Positions 8,307-64,000 of a DNA stretch of 64,000 nucleotides are shown here, piece by piece (within the stretch, counting starts at the first letter, position 1; every line of letters starts with the position of its first letter). The notes under the pieces are model-generated. The model worked only from the letters and a program-made list of their open reading frames with translations. It made no database searches and was not told the origin of the DNA. Both the position numbers and the translations under genes were made by a program. Source of the stretch: Eledone cirrhosa (Eukaryota); assembly GCA_964016885.1 (NCBI GenBank), contig OZ024742.1, positions 202,926,001 through 202,990,000 on the forward strand. Direction: 5' to 3'.

Positions 8307-10303
8307 GAGTCTAACCTGCCAGTCAGACTGATAGCCCCCTCCCAGTCAGACATGGGGGTTATTAGAAAAAGCATTTTAGATAGGATCCCGCCCACACTTA
8401 AGAGTAAAATAAGGTTACAACTCTGGTCCTGCACCAGCCAGGTGCTGGACTGGTTTACCTGACAAACATAGGACTAGCTTCATACAACTAGACATACAAT
8501 TACTACTCCTCTATCTCGCCCATAGTCCTGAACAAGGCACTCATATTCATGATGAATAGGACAGACATAACATGCGACGAGGTCCGAATCATACACGCCG
8601 CCAGAAAGACCCTGATCTGATTCGGTGGGGACATATGGACCCAGAGCGACTGGCCAAATAATTTTGACATTACAATGGGCTCCAGTGACTCCGTGCAGCT
8701 AACTTGGTTGGGATATACATACTCTACGAGATCAGGAGAGAAATACCCAACCTGGATGGCGGGCTGTACCGAGACGACGCACTCTTCACCATAGTGGACC
8801 ACAGCACCACAATGGTAAAAAATATGAAGAGGAGAATTAGGCACTTCTTTAGCAAGGTAGGACTTAAAGTAGAGATGGAACCCAATAGAAAAGTAGTGAA
8901 TTTCCTGGACACCACCCTCAACCTCAACACCAAGCTACACCACCCATATCATAAACCCAATGAGAAGCTGGTGTATATCAACGCTGGATCCAATCACCCT
9001 AGATCTATAGTTAAGACCATAGTTAAGAGTGTCTCTGACAGGATCTCTAACTTGTCGGCCAATAAAGAGATCTTCAATAGTAACGCTGATTACTATAACT
9101 CAGCGTTAGCCAAGGCGTCCCACAGTCATAGGATCAGCTACAACCCTAAGGGACATGATCGAGATGACCTAAGGGACCAATACCCTCAGGGGCATGAGTC
9201 GCCCACCTAATCCCTCGGTGACCAGTAGTAACACTCCCAGACCCCTATCTGTCACCACCCCCGGTAGAAGGTCCCGCATACCCCACAGGTCTAATACCTA
9301 CAGTGCTGGCACCCCTGCACTGGCCCCACCACCCGCTGAACCCTAATTGAGCAGGGAGGCCGCACCTCGCAGGTTTATAGCCCCACGGTGGGCCCATATA
9401 ACCCTCATGAAAGTGACCGCTCTGCACACCTGAGTGACACCAACTGAGCTCGACCTGAGCTGTGCACAACCACGTGATGGACCATGGCGGACACCCAACA
9501 ACCCCGCAAGAATAGGACCAGAAAGGTCACATGGTATAACCCTCTGTACTCGGTGGGTCTACGTACCAGCCTGGCTAGAACATTCTTTAGAGTATAAATG
9601 TTTCACTAGGGTCACAAGTACTATAAAATATTCAACAGGCACACAGTGAAACTTTCCTACTCAACCACATGCTCCGTAGCCCAGCACACAGCCGGCATAA
9701 ATAGGAATAGGCTCACTGCCTCTAATACCACCGTAAACCCCGGAGCCACACAACAGAACCAGCACGCGGGACGCACCGGAACCCGGACAGGCCCAACTAG
9801 CACACCGGAACCCAACGACCCTGTGCTGATTGCGGAGTCTACCTAGCCAACCCCGAGTGATGGTAACCACGCGGTACATGTGGTGGGGCTTAAGACCCAT
9901 ACTATGCCCCCTTAGTAATGAATGCATGACGAAAAACGTAGTCTACAGGTGCAAGTTCACAACCCCTAACTCGGAGCACCACTACATAGGATCCACAGCG
10001 ACGAGCTTCAAAGATCGGTGGTATAACTATCGCCATTTCTTTAACAAAATAGATAAGAGGAAATGTACGGCCCTTTCTGAATTGATCTGGAAGCTCAAAC
10101 TTGAAATGAACCCGCACTCTCTGGTCTGGTCCATGGTTAGAAAGGTTCCCCCAGACAGAGGCTGGTCTGGTATTTACAACCTCTGTCTTAGTGAGACACT
10201 CAATATTCTTCATGGCGGAACCAAGCTATTAAACAGAAGGGCCGACTTATTCGGTGACTGCAGACACCTAAGGACGGGAACTTTCCTCAAGCTATATGGA
10301 TAA
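8307..10303 (+). mobile_element. Decayed Penelope-like retroelement (RT + C-terminal GIY-YIG endonuclease), 5'-truncated
   Basis: RT motifs FDITMGS, GGLYRDDAL, VNFLDTTLNL, PYHKPN..YINAGSNHP; KIFNRHTVKLSYS; CPLSNEC..NVVY..YIGST..FKDRW GIY-YIG and terminal DCRH; stops and frameshifts; begins in a (TA)n tract. Confidence 0.9.
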
Positions 10304-10555
10304 ACCCCGGTTAAGGCCTCCCACAACACCCCCTCCCCCTGTAGGTCCCCTACACCCCGTACCAATGACCAATGGACAACAACAACCACCCATAGTTTGT
10401 GGTCCCTATGGTGGATGGTCCACCAGATCCTCTACTGGTTAGGGGTCATCAAAATCACGTTTTATTGAAACTGATTTTATATATTTATATATATATATTA
10501 TATGTATATATATATATATATAGTTAAACGAATAGAGGTGTAACACACAAGTTAT

Positions 10556-10798
10556 TATATATTGGTAAACGGAATAGAAAATGCTGACAAACTGTTCACA
10601 GTTGAAAAATGGTTTAATTAGGAATAAAAGAGTATTAGTGATTGTATGGGTTAGTATTCAGTTGTGGTTTTAAGTTTTTAAGTTTTTACCGGTTGCGCAT
10701 TTCTAAATGCTTTTCAAAAATAATTTTGAGATAGAGTGTCCGTGCTGTTTGCTCTGATCAGCATTTGTCAGCATTTTCTATTCCGTTTACCAATATAT
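10556..10798. mobile_element. Small TA-embedded insert with about 35-bp inverted ends and an internal hammerhead-like motif (minus strand)
   Basis: ATATTGGTAAACGGAATAGAAAATGCTGACAAA inverted at 10764-10798; minus 10684-10720 reads TTT-TTGAAAA-GCATT tagA AATGC-GCAA-CCGG-TA-AAA. Confidence 0.7.
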
Positions 10799-11027
10799 AT
10801 TTATATATATATATTATATGTATATATATATATTTATATATATATATTTTATATGTGTATATGTGTGTATGTGTATATGTGTGTATTTTATATATATGTG
10901 TATATGTGTATATGTGTATATGTGTATATGTGTGTATATGTGTGTATTTTATATATATATGTATATATATATATTTTATATATATATGTATTTTATATAT
11001 ATATATGTATGTATATATGTATTATAT

Positions 11028-24057: not shown

Positions 24058-24694
24058 ATACACGTGTTTAGATATTCATATTCAGGCAATTATGCCATTC
24101 AAATGTCAGAAAGACATAATGGATGAAAGAGAGAATGTGAAGTAAAACTTCAGCTGAAAGCACACGGTTAGATTAGATAGAATGAACTTTATGTCATTTG
24201 ATGGGGTGATAGGAACCAGTGCTTACATACTAATAAGCTAATAGTACATATAGCTTATTGTGTAAACCATATACACCAATATATGAATAATTACTACTGT
24301 AGATGGAAGCCTTATTCTATAGGGGTATCTTAACAGATATTCTAACCTATTGTTTACAGTAATTAACTGTTGCAATTGTTTCTGCATTTGGGATTACTAC
24401 ATATTCAAATCACCCAATGCTTAGATAAATAATTTTATATATATATACAAGTATACATATACATTATTACACACACACATATACATATATATAAAGATAG
24501 AACCAGATGAAACTAGTTAGACCATTATTCAACTTGAGTCGAGGCCCGATGGCTGAGCTCTTTCCGTTTCAACAGCTAGTTCCAGATGTGTGTATGTGTA
24601 TCTATCTATCTATTATATAACGAAGGAAATGTGGTAAGGAACCAGGTGAACCATAACGCACCAAAGTACTCAATACTTAGGGTAGTAGAGTGGG

Positions 24695-24813
24695 TAATAG
24701 GAACAAGTAAGACCCCGACGGCTGAGCTCAAGCCGTTTCGACGGCTAATTCGTTCAGAATTAGCCGTCGAAACGGCTTGAGCTCAGCCATCGGGGTCTTA
24801 CTTGTTCCTATTA
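24695..24813. repeat. Near-perfect palindrome (57-bp arms, 5-nt loop) containing the 3' half of a hammerhead
   Basis: Arms differ at one position; each strand reads hairpin-GAAA-CGGCT TGAGCTC AGCC(G/A)-TC-GGGGTC. Confidence 0.9.
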
Positions 24814-24864
24814 TCTATTATATATATATATATAGTTAGCTAATAAACAACATCAGATAATTAT

Positions 24865-29032: not shown

Positions 29033-32000
29033 GTGCAGGCCGGAGAATTGTTCTTCCTCCTTCAATCTATGATTCCCCTCGCTTCTACAGTGAGTGCTTT
29101 CAGAATTCGATGACTGCAGTTTGACACATGGTAAAGCCATCTTATTTCATCACGATAACAACTAACCCTAACTGGGATGAAATAAAAAATAGTTTGCACC
29201 CTGGTGAAAAACCTAGTGACCATCCTGATATTTGTGCAAGTCTTCAAGATCAAGTATGACAGCCTCATGGATGATTACTGAAAAAAAATGTCCCAGGAAA
29301 AGTTGTGGCTCATTCTGCTACAATAGAGTGGCCTCACTCATGCTCATATTCTGCTGATAATGGCTGAAGTTAGCAAGCCCAAAACTGCTGATGCCATTGA
29401 TCAGATAGTGTACTGTGAGATTTCTGATAAAGAGACCAATCCAATTCTGCATAAGATCATCACATCCTGCAACATTCATGGCTCTGGTGGACAAGCTAAT
29501 ATGATGTGCTCATGTATGGAAGGGCTAGGACAACAACGCCATTGCTCAAAAAGTTATCCCAAGGCATTCAGACAAACCACATTTGTTGCCGAAAATTCCT
29601 TTCCGGAGTATAGCAGAAGGGATAGACAGCTTAGTGGTAACACCCATACAATCCAACTGAAAGGTCAAGAATTTACTGTTGATAATCGTTGGATTGTTCC
29701 ATACAACCCTTTCCTCTCATTGAGATATCAGTGCCACATCAATTGTGAGGTTGTCCACAGTGTCAAGGCTGTTAAGTACTTATATAAGTACATCACAAAA
29801 GGATCAGACAAGATCACTTTCACTATTAAGGATGATCAAGGAAATTGTGTCCATGCCTAAAATGAGATTGAGACCTATATCAATGCATGGTACATCTCAG
29901 CCAGTGAAGCATTCTGGAGAATCTATAAATTTCCATTACATCATCGAAAACCGCCAGTTGAAAAGTTACCTTGCCATTTACCTGGAGAACAAATGGTCGT
30001 GTATGAGCGAGGGCAGGAAGAAAGTATTGTTTCTAGGGGAGAGCCAATGACTAAGTTGACGGAATATTTTCAACTGAATATTAGAGATCCACTGGCACAA
30101 AACATATTGTATATTGATATTCCTAGATATTTCACTTGGACAAACAAAAAGTGGCAAAGAAGAAAAAAGGGACATCTGGATGGTGATCAACAATTTATGA
30201 GTGAATCTCTTGGACACATTCCAACAGTATCTCTCAGTAGACATCAATCTGAATTATATTACCTCAGGATGATCCTACATCACAAGGCTAGGTCAACTTC
30301 ATACAAAGAGTTGAGAACAATTGAAGGAGTTGAATTTCCAACATTCCAAGAAGCATGCAGGAAACTTGGTCTGTTAGATAAAGATGGAGAAAAAGACAAA
30401 GCTATGGAAGAGGCCTTATCCATTACGCATGGTCTTCAGCTGTGAGAGATTTTCTGCACCATTTTATTGTACAGCATGCCAAATGACCCTCTGCAGTTCT
30501 GGGAGAAATGGAAGAATTGTCTTGTAGAGGATATCATGCAAGTCATGTCCATGCAAACCGTGCAGATTCGCCAACATTGAATCTTGAGCAACTGGTTATT
30601 TTTCACAAAGTAATCACCTCTGTATATGAAAATGAAGGCAGAATTTTCTGCTTGAATGCAAGTGGAGGTACAGGAAAGACCTACGTCATAAACATCCTAT
30701 TTGATTACCTCCAATCTAAAAAGAAAAATTGCACTTGCCACTACCATATCTGGAATAACAGCCACTTTGCTACACAAAGATAGAACTCTTCATTCCAAGT
30801 GCAAGATTCCTGTCAATGTGACTGCTGAATCAACTTGCTTCTTCACAAAGAGCGATGACACAGGTAAACTTATGCAGCAAGCTGACCTGCTAATCATTGA
30901 TGAGATAGGTATGGGACATAAGCATATCTTTGAATGCCTTGACAGGAGCTTCAAAGATGTTCGAGATTTCAAAAAGCCATTTGGTGGTATTACTATCTGG
31001 TGACTGGAAGCAAATTCTTCCAGTTGTACGTCATGGTGTTAGACCACAAATAGTTGAGGCAACCATCAAGAGATCCTATCTCTGGGACTATGTAGAAACC
31101 ATGGAGATGACAACCAATCAACGGTTAATTAATGCAGAGGATTCTGATGAAAGACAGTTTGCAAACTACCTTCTTGATGTGAGAAATGGTAACATTCCAA
31201 CTGTAGGTGCATTCACAATTCTTCTGCCAAATGAACTTTATCTTGAATATGGTAATGTGACTGTGTGATTTTATGTATACAAATCTTCCAAGAAACTACA
31301 CAAACCCACTATGGCTTGCAAATAGAGCCATTATCACTCCAGCAAATTATGCAGTAAGATTGGTGAATGAGTTCATGGTCAACAAGGTCCCTGGTCATAA
31401 GATAATCTACAGAAGCTCTGATACAGTAGATAATTATTTCTACTTTTGGCACAAGGCCAGCAATTATCGCAGTGTATTACTGGTACTTTATTTTATCGAC
31501 CCTGTAAGGATGAAAGGCAAAGTTAACCTCAGCAGGATTTGAACTCAGAATGGCAAGCGACGTAACTCTATGTGTCAAAGCATAGTGTCCGACCCTCTAC
31601 CGATACTGCCAATCCAGGTAGATAATGAACTGCAATATCCAATTGAGTTCATCAACAAACTTACCCCATCAGGCTTCCCAACACACATACTTAAACTGAA
31701 GAAAGGCAGTTTCATCATGCTTCTGAGAAATCTGGATCCTCTAAACGGGCATTGCAATGGTACACACTACATCACCATCAGTTTACATAATCATGTAATT
31801 GAAGCTGAAGTGGTATTGGGTCTCAATGCTGGAACACGGTTGCCACATGTATCTCAAGAGCTTGAGTTCCCTTTCACCTTTACTCGCAAGCAATTTCCTG
31901 TCAAACCAACCTTTGCCCGTTATATGCAACAAGGCACAAGGGCAGACATTTGAAAAGACAGGTGTATATCTACCAACACAATTCTTCTCACATGGTCAGA

Positions 32001-54481: not shown

Positions 54482-54701
54482 ATATAAATACACATGCATA
54501 TATATATACATATAAGTGGGGGCACATGGCTTAGTGGTTAGAGCATTGGCCTTGCAATCAAAAGGTTGCGAGTTCAATTCTCAGACCGGGTGATGTGTTG
54601 TTTCCTTGAGCAAGACACTTTATTTCACATTGCTCCAGATTACTCAGATGATATTAAATACACATGCATATACACATTCATACATACATATACATACACA
54701 T

Positions 54702-54745
<44 letters not shown>

Positions 54746-54800
54746 GTGAGGTTTTTTTTACAAAATGAAAAATAACCGAGGTGTCCTACATGAGCGAAAG

Positions 54801-55009
54801 TATAAAGAAAAAAAGATGAAATAGAAAATGCAATTGGAGTCTTATTTTTAAAAAAAAATATATATATTTATTTGGTTCCTCCATCTCAACTCTACTTTTG
54901 AAAAGCAGAAGAACTGCGAAACCGGTAAAGGAACCAAATAAATATATATATTTTTTTTTTAAAAATAAGACTCCAATTGCATTTTCAATTTCATCTTTTT
55001 TTCTTTATA
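54801..55009. mobile_element. Fold-back insert (about 80-bp arms) with a minimal hammerhead in its loop
   Basis: Arms 54801-54880 / 54929-55009; plus 54895-54930 CTT-TTGAAAA-GCAG aagaa CTGC-GAAA-CCGG-TA-AAG. Confidence 0.8.
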
Positions 55010-55049
55010 TATATAGACGTTAATATATATATCCCTTATTCTCTCTTCA

Positions 55050-55776
55050 TCTAGGAGATTGTATCAGATCACACTGGATAGCATCAGATTGGACAGTTAT
55101 TAATCTATCCAATCCAGTCGAATTTGACCCAGCCCAATACGGTTTGATCCGACCCGACCCATTTTGATCCAATCCAGACCATTTTGTTCCGGTCCAAGCT
55201 GATCTGATTTGGCCCGATCTCGTCTGAAGCAATCAAATCTGATCCAGTCTGATCTAATTTGGTCCAGAGTAATCCAATCCAGTCTGATTGCAATCTGATC
55301 TGATCCAGTTTGATTCAACCTGGTTTGGTCCAATCCAGTCTGATCCAGCCTGGTTTGTTCCAATCTGTTCAGATCTAAACTGGGTTGATCCAGTCTGGTC
55401 TAATCCGGTTTAATCCGAGCCAGTTTGATCCAATATAATCTGAACCAATCCAGTCTCATCTGAGCCAGTTGGATCCAATCCAGTTTGATCTGAGCTGGTT
55501 TGATCCAGTCTGGTCTGATCCAATCCGGTCCAATCTGATCCTGTTTGATCCAATTCTATTCCATTTGATCTGATCTGCTCTCGTCGGAAATGGTTTGATC
55601 TGATCTGGTCAGATCTAATCCACATTGATCCAGTTTGCTCTGATCCGGTCTGGCCCAATCCGATCCGGTTTGATCTGATCAGATCCGATTTGATCTGATC
55701 CGGTTTAATCTGATCCGATCCGATCTGATCCAGTTTAATCCAATTTAGTCTGATCAGAATTGGACTGGATCAGGAC
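55050..55776. repeat. Degenerate pentamer satellite (GATCY / AATCC / GGTYT)n
   Basis: 5-bp periodicity, purest near 55660-55735; the DQTG/LDW ORFs are artefacts. Confidence 0.88.
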
Positions 55777-56475
55777 ATTATATATATATCGCTGTGAGAG
55801 GGGTTTGGCACTGCTAACTGGCTTATCCTTTCTCATAGCAGTGCCATGCAACACCTGAACTGAGTGTCTGCTGTGTGAAGGGTTTGGTGTGGCCAATTGG
55901 CCTGTCCCTCCTCATAGTGGTACCATCCAGAACAGGGTCCAAAACTATTGCTATGCTGTGAAATGGGTTAGGCTCCTCGTATCGATACCATCCAGTACCC
56001 AGCTCCAACTTGTCTATCCATATAGTGGTGCCATCAAGCACGAGGCTATCAAGCTGTGTTCTGCACCTGTCTCTCCTCATAGTGGTGTCATCCAGTACTG
56101 GGGCTCATCCATTGGGATCCCGGATATTTTCATATATATATATAGAGAGAGAGAAATTAACGTTTACACTCTACTAATGTATTGAGTACCTTACTAACTG
56201 TGGATACCCCCAACTGACCCTGGGACTGACACACACTCAGCAAAATGTGCCCAACCCACACAGTAAAGTGGTTGTGTGGGCAAAAAGCATTTAGTACTCA
56301 CTATAAATGAAGTTGATGCTAGGAAGGGCATGCAGCTGTAGAAACCGAGCCAAAATCAGTTCTGTATGAGCATGACATGGTCACCTGACAACAGGATAAC
56401 CTAGGATTACCAGTGTGGTAAAATGGACGTTAAACAGTGATGATGAATATGATGAACATATATATATATATATAT

Positions 56476-58209
56476 ATATTAAATTCAAATATTAATAAAA
56501 TAGATGTTCTTGTGATCAATTCAATTTTATTATACATATTTCAGAGGTACTTGAATCAAGTTCAATAGTACGTCCTCATCAGATAAAATAAAATGATACA
56601 TGACATACCCTGACATGTTAAATGCTTAAGATTTAATCAAGGTAGTGATTAACTTGGGAGAAAACTCAATATTTATACCGTACAAATGAGAACATGGGAA
56701 AACGTAATAGAATCAATAGAGAGGGTGTGAGTAAGAAAAAGATTCCTTTAATGCAACAGTTATAGAGATATTAATGTTTGAAATACTACTGTAGGACTAT
56801 AGAGGAAGACTATAGATATCTGGAGTTATATTAGTTTTTAGTTTGAGAATGCAGCTGATATATAATTAAAGAGAGAGGGATAAGGGGAGTAATTTATGCA
56901 CAAATATTCATCAGACACATATAAACATATATAGCCTTGGCGGTTAAGTTTCAAAATATTTAATTTATGTTATTTTAGGGTAACAAATCAAAATTATAGG
57001 TTTTAAAAGTTGAGGGTTATTTGTGTTATAAATTTTATAAATTTATAAATGTGTTAAATTTCTAAAATTCAAAGTTTTATGAAATCGAATTTATGAAATC
57101 GAATTTAAAGGATTATACTGTTCAATATTCATGCAAAGGTAATCTTTAAAATATTACTTGTAATATTATCAACAATATCCATATGTATAGTTTATGAAGT
57201 ATTTACAGTTATAATTATCAAGGAATTTATTGTTAAATGGTTATAGTGGTTATAGTGGTTATAGTGGTTATAAAAATTTACAGGTTAGATATCAAAACTA
57301 TATTTAAAACAGAGATAGAAAAATAAATGTCTGGATCAAAGTTAATAATATCCAAAAATATTGTTTAAGAACAAGATGGCATGTTGATATACAATACCTA
57401 TGGCTTTTTGGATATACTTTTGTTATACTTTAGACACTATAACCATTTAACAATAAATTCCTTGATAATTATAACTGTAAATACTTCATAAACTATACAT
57501 ATGGATATTGTTGATAATATTACAAGTAATATTTTAAAGATTACATTTGCATGAATATTGAACAGTATAATCCTTTAAATTCGATTTCATAAATTCGATT
57601 TCATAAAACTTTGAATTTTAGAAATTTAACACATTTATAAAATTTATAAAATTTATAACACAAATAACCCTCAACTTTTAAAACCTATAATTTTGATTTG
57701 TTACCCTAAAATAACATAAATTAAATATTTTGAAACTTAACCGCCAAGGCTATATATGTTTATATGTGTCTGATGAATATTTGTGCATAAATTACTCCCC
57801 TTATCCCTCTCTCTTTAATTATATATCAGCTGCATTCTCAAACTAAAAACTAATATAACTCCAGATATCTATAGTCTTCCTCTATAGTCCTACAGTAGTA
57901 TTTCAAACATTAATATCTCTATAACTGTTGCATTAAAGGAATCTTTTTCTTACTCACACCCTCTCTATTGATTCTATTACGTTTTCCCATGTTCTCATTT
58001 GTACGGTATAAATATTGAGTTTTCTCCCAAGTTAATCACTACCTTGATTAAATCTTAAGCATTTAACATGTCAGGGTATGTCATGTAACATTTTATTTTA
58101 TCTGATGAGGACGTACTATTGAACTTGATTCAAGTACCTCTGAAATATGTATAATAAAATTGAATTGATCACAAGAACATCTATTTTATTAAATATTTGA
58201 ATTTAATAT
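56476..58209. repeat. Long inverted repeat: about 773-bp arms (56476-57248 / 57435-58209) with a 186-bp spacer, in a TA tract
   Basis: Arms are reverse complements with only about 4 differences found by eye; each arm carries a hammerhead-like motif. Confidence 0.93.
58090..58160 (+). ncRNA. Hammerhead-like motif in the long inverted repeat (mirror copy at 56524-56595, minus)
   Basis: ATTTTATTttat-CTGATGA-GGAcGTACtaTTGAA cttga TTCAAGTACcTCT-GAAA-TATG-TA-tAATAAAAT; minimal stem III, imperfect stem I junction. Confidence 0.55.
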
Positions 58210-58299
58210 TAATAACTCTGGAAAATATCTTCTTGTTGAGTGCTTTCAATCTACTGTAATACTCATTCTTTGATGTACTCATTGAATCTTGTTTAACTC

Positions 58300-58354
<55 letters not shown>

Positions 58355-58413: not shown

Positions 58414-58798
58414 ATATGAATGTATATACAGTATACTTTGCAATACACTGTATGCTTAATTAAAAGCTTTTTAAGACCTTATGCTATTGTTTTAGAGCGC
58501 CAAATCTAATTTTCAATTTCTGCTTGACGGACAACCGCTCTGTATAGTCAGTTCCTGATTATTACTAGAAATTCTATAAGAATCAAACATTCATGATTTT
58601 CAGCAAACAGGTGGAGTACTTGGCTTTGATAAGTACCAATCAGTACGAAACATAGCTCTGTCAGCTTTATCTCCCCTGTTTGCTGAAAATTAAAGTAAGT
58701 GAGTCTGTCACTAATCTAAAACAATAGCATAAGGTCTTAAACATGCTTTTAATTAAGCATACAGTGTATTGCAAAATACACTATATATACATTCATAT
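58414..58798. mobile_element. TA-adjacent insert with about 83-bp inverted ends enclosing a hammerhead
   Basis: ATATGAATGTATATA..GCAATACACTGTATGCTTAATTAAAAGC..TTAAGACCTTATGCTATTGTTTTAGA mirrored at 58715-58798. Confidence 0.85.
58596..58690 (+). ncRNA. Type I hammerhead ribozyme with U3-A8 core and extended stem I
   Basis: GGCT-TTGATAA-GTAC caatca GTAC-GAAA-CA tagctc TG-TC-AGCT; GUC cleavage after 58662; stem I continues as GGAG/CTCC and TTTTCAGCAAACAGG/CCTGTTTGCTGAAAA. Confidence 0.82.
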
Positions 58799-59697: not shown

Positions 59698-60640
59698 CTA
59701 TTTCATAATCATCATCATCATCATCATTTTACGTCCGCTTTTCCCTGCTTGCAAGGGTGGGACGGGTCTTAATAATATATATATATTATGAAATACTGTT
59801 GGCTTCATGCTCACAATAATTTCTATACTTTCATTTATATTTATACTCGGAATTTTCCTAGAGTGCTTAAAATTACAGACACAACTGGAGCAATGTAAAA
59901 TAAAGTGTTTTGCTCAAGGATACAATGCACTGCTGGGGTATCGAACTCATGACCTTACAATTGTGAGCTGGATACCCTAATCACAACATATGCACATGTG
60001 CATTATTATTATTCGCTTATGATGTTTTACCACCAATACAAGACTAAGAAAGAAACTAAAAACGTGGCCATACTAACATATTTAGACTCAATAGAAAATT
60101 AGTGTAGAAAAAACTAAAGGTCATTTAATAACTTTCCACATTACTGGAGGGGTTTAAGCCCCCAAAACCCCTTAGTGGGTTGTCATATATAGGTTGAACA
60201 ATGAAAACTAAAAAGTGAGGTCTAATGCTTAATTAGCTCATTGTTTTACAATCGTTTCAGAAGGTTGATTGATCATGATAATATTGATATACTGACTAAT
60301 CAATATCAGTTATGTAACGTTATATTAGTCTTGATATAATATGGAGTTACATAACTTCTATTAATTAGGTATTATGTTAATCTTGGTCAATCAACCTTTT
60401 GGTGTCTGTCGCTCTACCGATATTGCCAATCCATAGCAGAGTGTAATAATCGTTTCTACTTTAGGCACAAGGCCAGCAATTACCCAGTGCATTACTGGTA
60501 CTATATTTTATCAACCCCGTAAAGATGAAAGGCAAAGTCAACCTTGGCGGGATTTGAACTCAGATCGTAAAGGGACGTAACTATGCTGGAAAGCATGGCG
60601 TCCGACCCTCTACCGATATTGCCAATCCACCAGTGTAATA

Positions 60641-60871
60641 ATAATGATAGGTATGGATGAGGTGTCAAATTTTCATTATGTTTATTTAGGTGACATGCAT
60701 TTTGTGATTGATCAGCTGAAGGTTTGATCGGTATCGATCGGGCCCAACTCTGAAATAAAAAGCTCACCAGATTTCTGTTAGTGCAATGACGGAAATATCA
60801 ATCATGAAACATGTGTCACCTAAATAAATGTAATGGAAATTTGACACCTCATCCATTCTTATTATCATTAT
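60641..60871. mobile_element. MITE with about 70-bp TIRs
   Basis: TGGATGAGGTGTCAAATTT..TTTATTTAGGTGACA..TGATTGAT mirrored at 60797-60871. Confidence 0.8.
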
Positions 60872-62965: not shown

Positions 62966-63355
62966 ATCATCATCATCATTTCATCATTTCATTTTACGTC
63001 TGCTTTTCCCTGCTTGCAAAGGTGGGACAGGAACTGATTCTGGCTTGATTTCTACAGCTTGATGCCCTTCCTAACACCAACCTCATTTACAGTGAGTGCT
63101 GGGTGCTTTTTTTCCGTGGTGCCTACACATCCACTTTACAGTGTGGGCTGGGTGCTTTTTTGCCGTGGCACCTCCATGACCACTTTGCAGTGGAATGATA
63201 GGGACCCCAGTCCCTATCACCTCATTTCTACAGCTGAATGAACTGGAGAAATGTGAAATAAAGTGTCTTGCTCAAGGAAACAACACATCACCCAGTCTGA
63301 GAATTGAACTCACAACCTTTCGATTGCAAGGCCAATGCTCTAACCACTAAGCCAC
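62966..63355 (-). mobile_element. SINE family A with an internal duplication
   Basis: Family A sequence with the TTTACAGTG..GGGTGCTTTTT..CCGTGG block duplicated. Confidence 0.88.
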
Positions 63356-64000
63356 ATACGTAATATATTGAGATGAAAATCTTAGGTTAAATGAATGTGT
63401 CTAGCCACCAAGGCTTCATAACAGGTGTAGCCAAGGAGAAGTAAACCATGAATAGTACATCTTGGGTAGAACTACCAGGATACAGGATGGAGCTTGACCG
63501 ACTCCAGCTGGGTTGCCTGGGTGATGTTGTCTGATGTTGAACCCCTAAAAACAACCAAGGACAAATCAGTTGAAAAAGAAAATAAACTCCCTCTAGGAGT
63601 TATTACAGCATCAACATCGCCATTTTTACGTTGCCTTTCCCGTGTTGACTTACGATGGATGAGACATTTTGAGGCAATGTTTTACAGACAGATGCCCTTG
63701 CTGACACTAACCCTTTTAGTTGCTTCTTACAACATGCAGGGATATACAAAATGCATATACATAGATGTGTGTGTTTGCATGTGTGCATGTGTGTGTTTAC
63801 AATGAGCTTCTGAGATTTCTGTCTACCAAATATCAACCCCAGTACATATTTTTTAGATTTGGTGCTTATTTATTAATCCCTTTTTGTGGAGCCAGTAAAT
63901 TATGGGGCGTAAACAGTAAATGTAAACACAGACATAAACACACACACACATTTATACATATATGCATATAAATATATACATACATATATATACACATAAC

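Follow-up and report, generated by a model that had tools for sequence, protein, structure and literature searches.

A hammerhead-bearing hairpin in Eledone cirrhosa is probably a microhomology-joined pair of truncated Penelope-like element ends

In the genome of Eledone cirrhosa, a long hairpin carries a minimal hammerhead ribozyme motif, and one of its arms starts beside the position at which that motif is predicted to cut. Did the ribozyme-cleaved end of an RNA set the breakpoint of this inversion, as a sequence-only reading of the DNA had proposed, or was the join made in another way? We examined the locus within a window of 64,000 nucleotides, the whole stretch of DNA that was analysed (assembly GCA_964016885.1, contig OZ024742.1, 202,926,001 to 202,990,000 of the forward strand); all positions below are those of the window. 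We think it probable that the locus is a dead insertion of a high-copy Penelope-like element (PLE) end, in which two 5′-truncated copies with a common source were joined in opposite orientation at 3 nt of microhomology, and that the hammerhead did not set the breakpoint. The parts of the locus are as follows.

54687..54740, no strand: (CA/TA)n microsatellite in the left flank, the likely insertion target, read from the sequence.
54741..54800, minus strand: optional 3′ tail of 60 nt, present on the inverted copy only and covered at family depth.
54801..54880, minus strand: left arm, an inverted 5′-truncated copy of the element end, identified by its match to the right arm.
54878..54880, no strand: CCT microhomology of 3 nt at the junction of the inverted and direct copies.
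54878..55009, plus strand: direct 5′-truncated copy of the element end, lacking the tail and ending in TATA-rich flank.
54895..54930, plus strand: hammerhead motif of minimal type I, its core U3-A8 and its stem III palindromic, predicted to be cut after 54927.
54929..55009, plus strand: right arm, the first two bases of which double as 3′ strand of stem I.

The order along the locus is (TA)n, inverted tail and arm, direct copy to the proximal 3′ end, and TA-rich flank. The arms (54801–54880 and 54929–55009) are identical in 79 of 81 aligned columns, differing by one mismatch and one homopolymer indel, and are separated by a loop of 48 nt (54881–54928). The folding energy of the hairpin stretch is −105 kcal/mol (z −21.8), which none of 200 shuffles equalled, in agreement with the 80-bp hairpin described earlier. 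The direct copy begins 47–50 nt above the predicted cut, which lies 82 nt before the proximal 3′ end. Both flanks are TA-rich, and any target-site duplication is unreadable in (TA)n. Both arms carry T at 54834, a position at which C makes up 98.7% of the depth in run X1 and was found in 807 of 836 reads in run X4. Because this minority letter is common to the two arms, they must come from one source, or one must have been copied or corrected from the other; a shared source is what our preferred explanation, two copies joined back to back, entails.

The window around the locus is AT-rich, animal-like DNA with many (TA)n tracts and tRNA-like repeats. tRNA-like SINE heads lie at 54525–54600 and 63289–63361, the second of which reaches the Rfam tRNA threshold, and a degenerate satellite with a 5-nt period directly follows the hairpin (55100–55770). 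There are LINE-like pieces near 12.8, 20 and 22 kb, and ORF pieces at 29327–31953 which, from their translations, we take to resemble a Helitron Rep-helicase.

All parts of the hammerhead that had been placed in the 48-nt loop could be located. Stem I pairs 54895–97 with 54928–30 (3 bp) and stem II pairs 54905–08 with 54914–17 (4 bp); the core consists of TTGAAAA (54898–904), GAAA (54918–21), CCGG (54922–25) and UA (54926–27), with N17 at 54927. With its first base at 54929, the right arm begins 2 nt after N17, as close to the cleavage site as had been stated. TTGAAAA, GAAA and TA agree with the conserved type I core, (U/C)UGAN(A/G)A, GAAA and UH with 3-8 pairing. A strict hammerhead descriptor, composed after the motif had been seen, found one match in the window and none in any of 100 block-wise dinucleotide shuffles. 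In Rfam, no hammerhead family reached the gathering level anywhere in the window, nor did any match 54700–58300 at E up to 10. In public reads, the core is free of variants among the 40 of 94 variant positions listed.

Minimal PLE hammerheads have been described with ∼1,300 U3-A8 matches in Schistosoma mansoni, and with dual motifs on opposite strands; cleavage was absent in the monomer and low in the dimer (PMC4209133). The core and the need for a dimer reported there, together with a predicted 6-bp intermolecular duplex of the ACCGGT palindrome (−10.3 kcal/mol), bear out the earlier reading of the motif as a minimal hammerhead of Penelope type, with a U3-A8 core and a stem III whose palindrome would make dimerisation necessary. 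The S. mansoni Cercyon U3-A8 hammerheads share with the Eledone motif the type I layout, the U3-A8 core, the G10.1-C11.1 pair, a short palindromic helix III, the predicted dimer requirement and a distribution mostly as single, dispersed motifs from truncated elements (PMC4209133). They differ in the stems: stem II has 4 bp here and 7–8 bp in S. mansoni, stem I has 3 bp here and 4–5 bp there, our motif has no extra base between 9 and 10.1, and its stem I overlaps the inverted arm (PMC4209133).

This overlap qualifies the earlier picture of a ribozyme displayed in the hairpin loop, since the 3′ strand of stem I has three bases, of which two (54929–30) fall within the right arm. Within the hairpin, the predicted pair probability is 0.0 for stem I and 0.97–1.0 for the arm pairs, and forcing the hammerhead fold is predicted to cost 9.8 kcal/mol. 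For the direct unit alone, lacking the left arm, the corresponding predictions are a stem I probability of 0.001 and a penalty of 5.9 kcal/mol. In a transcript across the locus, the long helix is thus predicted to hide stem I, and on these folding models the motif would be inactive here.

To what kind of element does this end belong? Since no ORF is linked to the family, its assignment rests on non-coding features. It shows those of endonuclease-bearing (EN+) PLEs: a hammerhead near the 3′ end or in the pLTR, an adjacent inverted 5′-truncated copy, a tail at one end, copies dispersed in AT-rich or microsatellite targets, and loose 3′ ends in (TA)n. The element is very likely a PLE end, an architecture that, like the U3-A8 core variant, has already been published, and the locus is likely the truncated end of a very common one. 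Elsewhere in the window, at ∼8400–10303 on the plus strand, is a broken ORF of PLE type, with reverse transcriptase (RT) and a C-terminal endonuclease. The C-terminal piece scores 0.94 with GIY-YIG atlas clusters in which that family is annotated on 25–33% of members, and Pfam found nothing in two pieces of the ORF. Its reading as RT is presumed from a YRDD motif. By blastn, this ORF remnant shares no match with the hairpin family ends.

Published EN+ PLE insertions resemble the locus in several ways (PMC8557442; PMC3846280). They likewise consist of a direct and an adjacent inverted 5′-truncated copy with 3′ ends pointing outward, a tail at one end, a short overlap at the junction and an AT-rich microsatellite target. 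PMC8557442 describes the inverted 5′-truncated copy, a tail of 30–40 bp and (TA)n targeting, and PMC3846280 a 15-bp overlap between the inverted and the direct pLTR. In contrast to these, the Eledone locus is only 270 bp long, has no ORF and carries a tail of 60 nt. Poseidon of Anolis carolinensis also has two 3′ ends that bound a tail, with the proximal end ∼85–92 nt after the predicted cut (our subtraction from positions in PMC11167929) as against 82 nt here; its hammerhead is of the C3-G8 kind and overlaps the start codon, whereas our motif contains no start codon (PMC11167929). PLEs have also been annotated in Octopus vulgaris (PMC13282606). Non-LTR retrozymes are alike in having a type I hammerhead, in being non-coding and present in high copy, and in their relationship to PLEs, and differ in consisting of head-to-tail repeats of 170–400 nt with a hammerhead in each unit (PMC7229834; bioRxiv 10.64898/2026.07.22.740005). 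We rejected a retrozyme for this locus, which has one motif, an inverted arrangement and no tandem unit.

The family was then followed in public reads. Of the six runs listed, four were mapped onto 54738–55040 at 80% likeness and scanned to about 85%: a RAD-seq run and three sets of contigs, all three from a single sample. The mapping tool masked 54927–55040 as repeat, so that those records fell on the left arm, and we infer that the right arm is family sequence from its match to the left one. Matching records numbered 4000, 3751 and 3457 contigs and 2366 reads; the family appears to be very abundant, with apparently thousands of copies, although mapping of this kind yields no copy number. A family 3′ end lies at 54801, where loose ends in 14 and 17 contigs are followed by TA repeats, and a second at 54741, with loose ends in 3 contigs and 96 reads; from both ends, contigs continue into TA-rich sequence. 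Tail and arm are continuous in records 1–5, 9–14 and 17–22 among those listed. At 54878 the upstream sequence of the family joins in 82, 91 and 69 contigs and 260 reads. Left-arm records continue past 54880 into the hammerhead read backwards in 9, 6 and 7 contigs and 98 reads, and in two opposite-strand joints. Pattern scans of metagenome, genome and viral contigs gave no match to the family; its upstream motif is absent elsewhere in the window, and no longer copy was found in the window or in the contig scans.

The junction of this particular locus was crossed by none of the 24 pieces listed (of 11,525), so that the reads confirm its parts and not the join. This, together with hairpin-shaped Rfam matches, is what could be said for a fold-back artefact of assembly or library, a DNA transposon with terminal inverted repeats (TIRs) or a microRNA precursor, all of which we consider very improbable. 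Against an artefact, the two arms differ at two places, and the family tail is present on the left arm and absent from the right one. The Rfam scores fall far below gathering (32.8 versus 65 bits) and are matches of shape. A MITE or TIR DNA transposon was rejected, as other copies run on from arm to hammerhead, and from loop to upstream sequence, so that no terminal inverted repeats bound the family. Finally, the window holds three more hairpins of the same plan, which we refer to as copies B, C and D.

10523–10800, minus strand (copy B): exact inverted repeat of 36 bp with a U3-A8 hammerhead in its loop.
56476–58305 (copy C): inverted repeat of 783 bp whose arms are 99% identical, each bearing a C3-G8 type I hammerhead towards its outer end.
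58414–58798 (copy D): 84-bp inverted repeat with arms 94% identical, its loop holding a U3-A8 hammerhead (core at 58626).

These three belong to families or subfamilies different from that of the locus studied here. Copy B has arms at 10556–10591 and 10764–10799, a likely tail of ∼33 nt beyond its direct arm and (TA)n on both sides. Its hammerhead region (10684–10736, minus strand) is 81% identical over 52 nt to the motif at 54895 (E 3e-8). The hammerhead itself (10684–10720) shows one compensatory change in each stem and one change in the core, GAAA to GCAA. This covariation, in which T-A replaces C-G in stem I and G-C in stem II, is between two copies only, and the partner columns are not among the read variants listed. 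A short motif seemingly common to the tails of the two copies was discarded, 364 of 1000 shuffles having aligned as well; on sequence comparison, only the hammerhead region links them. A connection of copy B, at 10.5 kb, with the neighbouring broken ORF was likewise set aside, as a (TA)n tract separates them and blastn gave no match. Copy C has arms at 56476–57256 and 57427–58209, a likely tail of ∼95 nt on the right and (TA)n at both ends, and at its junction a unit of 9 nt is repeated. It has the look of a young insertion from another PLE family, unrelated to this one. Copy D has arms at 58414–58496 and 58715–58798 and a near-palindromic stem III loop of 10 nt. Two further inverted structures were seen in the window. 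At 24545–24830, a palindrome of ∼50 bp per arm beside a partial inverted copy ends in (TA)n and resembles the palindromes at PLE inverted junctions. At 60638–60871, an inverted repeat of 75 bp, with arms 83% identical, encloses a loop of 84 nt; no hammerhead match was found there even when one core mismatch was allowed.

R2 elements, the 5′ ends of which are defined by an HDV-like ribozyme at the true 5′ end, offer a precedent for the idea of a breakpoint set by a ribozyme. At the Eledone locus, 54878–80 fits both the arm and the upstream sequence, and the inverted copy can therefore start anywhere from +2 to +5, where +1 is the first base after the cut; equivalently, owing to the 3-nt microhomology, it starts 1–4 nt past the predicted cut. 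If breaks were spread uniformly, this copy would break within 4 nt of the cut with a probability of 0.03, and one or more of three hairpins (this one, B and D) would do so with a probability of ∼0.09. The other hairpins in the window break at +96 (copy B), +53 (copy D) and −726 (copy C, both arms of which extend 726 nt past the cut). Within the family, a junction of 54830 to 54887, seen in one contig, lies at +50 to +53, and there too three letters are compatible with either side. A loose end that follows 54814 is at about +66 (74 reads, likely one locus), and a weakly supported one behind 54865 falls between about +5 and +8 (agreement 0.83 in 3 contigs); these latter two were read from consensus letters. 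Because similar hairpins nearby join elsewhere, we conclude that the adjacency of join and predicted cut here is probably a coincidence.

The contrary view is that the inverted arm is cDNA from hammerhead-cleaved RNA, on which RT ran off at the 5′ terminus (54928); after the loss of one base, the product would have annealed by microhomology to cDNA of uncut RNA. We consider it unlikely, although several observations would accord with it: the end of the arm can be placed 1 nt from that of the predicted cleavage product, the family junction near +5 to +8 favours cleavage, the core is invariant in the variant list mentioned above while stems covary between copies, and PLE hammerheads do cleave in vitro with the help of protein (PMC11167929). 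Against it, none of the three other hairpins and at most one of the three other family junctions is near the cut, and no mixed ends at 54877–54881 occur among the 24 best-supported of 346 loose ends. Such loose ends as lie behind 54880 are confined to 9, 6 and 7 contigs and their consensus continues through the hammerhead, although its agreement there is only 0.66–0.79, which leaves room for some ends at the cut. In X4, the hammerhead is the deepest part of the family (∼1340–1420, against 770–800 for the inner arm), the reverse of what would be expected if many copies started at the cut; this excess can also stem from diverged subfamilies that share that motif alone. In vitro, moreover, uncut RNA is the dominant substrate (PMC11167929), and the microhomology explains the position of the junction without cleavage.

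The proposal that cleavage of the RNA by the ribozyme placed the inversion breakpoint is thus weakly contradicted, in a test of low power that drew on 24 of the 346 loose ends and in which the mapping tool dropped 12 joints and 24 loose ends at repeats from X4. A strong peak of breakpoints at the cut is unlikely, and a weak or modest enrichment is possible. One can imagine that ACCGGT-paired RNAs in a dimeric RNP are used together, the cut one templating the short arm and the whole one the read-through arm; that a measurable share of the inverted 5′ copies of the family are run-off cDNAs of this kind seems to us doubtful. The literature searched, outside which most subscription papers lie, contained no test of inversion breakpoints against the hammerhead cut.

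How, then, would two uncut templates give this structure? We infer the mechanism from what is seen directly, namely two copies, a tail on one of them, two family 3′ ends, the microhomology, a common minority allele and the hammerhead motif. L1 twin priming yields inversions with microhomology made of non-overlapping parts; at this locus, by contrast, one and the same 3′ end is copied in both arms. In our preferred scheme, the RT-endonuclease of the element would nick both strands of a (TA)n target, and each nick would prime a cDNA, the left one beginning at the distal start site and including the 60-nt tail, the right one beginning at the proximal site and lacking it. The left cDNA would halt after ∼140 nt and the right one after ∼130 nt, the latter having passed through an uncut hammerhead; their 3′ ends would anneal via CCT:AGG and be filled in. 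In the master element, the hammerhead may act as a dimer via the ACCGGT palindrome, perhaps with the help of protein. The scheme is in line with the Anolis PLE protein, which cuts and extends both strands, starting at two sites that bound the tail (PMC11167929). According to that work, hammerhead mutants insert normally, no RNA-seq reads begin or end at the cut, and the protein-assisted cleavage is dispensable for insertion.

A further possibility differs from this scheme solely in the origin of the second arm: the antisense strand, extended past the hammerhead, would fold back at AGG:CCT and copy itself, and one tail would be lost when the endonuclease resolves the product, again without cleavage by the ribozyme. 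Self-priming has been put forward for PLE inverted junctions (PMC3846280) and tail asymmetry has been attributed to endonuclease resolution (PMC8557442); it would also directly explain the minority allele at 54834 in both arms and the short 48-nt loop. We nevertheless regard it as decidedly improbable. A target-primed cDNA that lacks a tail cannot template one on the other arm, and at this locus only the inverted arm has a tail, so that an additional step is needed in which the tail is trimmed from the direct copy; in addition, both target strands are primed in vitro (PMC11167929). The one-sided tail excludes only snap-back from target-primed cDNA, and twin priming and self-priming are indistinguishable with the present data.

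We see in the locus, for the present, one more truncated Penelope-like insertion, in a window that alone contains four hammerhead hairpins of the same plan. The role of PLE hammerheads in vivo has been called unclear for EN+ elements (PMC8557442), and their cleavage is dispensable in vitro (PMC11167929). If the run-off reading were true, the breakpoints in the genome would preserve a fossil trace of PLE hammerhead cleavage in vivo that could be counted across thousands of copies. The abundance of the family makes it a test bed, both for the use of cleaved RNA as template and for twin priming versus self-priming.
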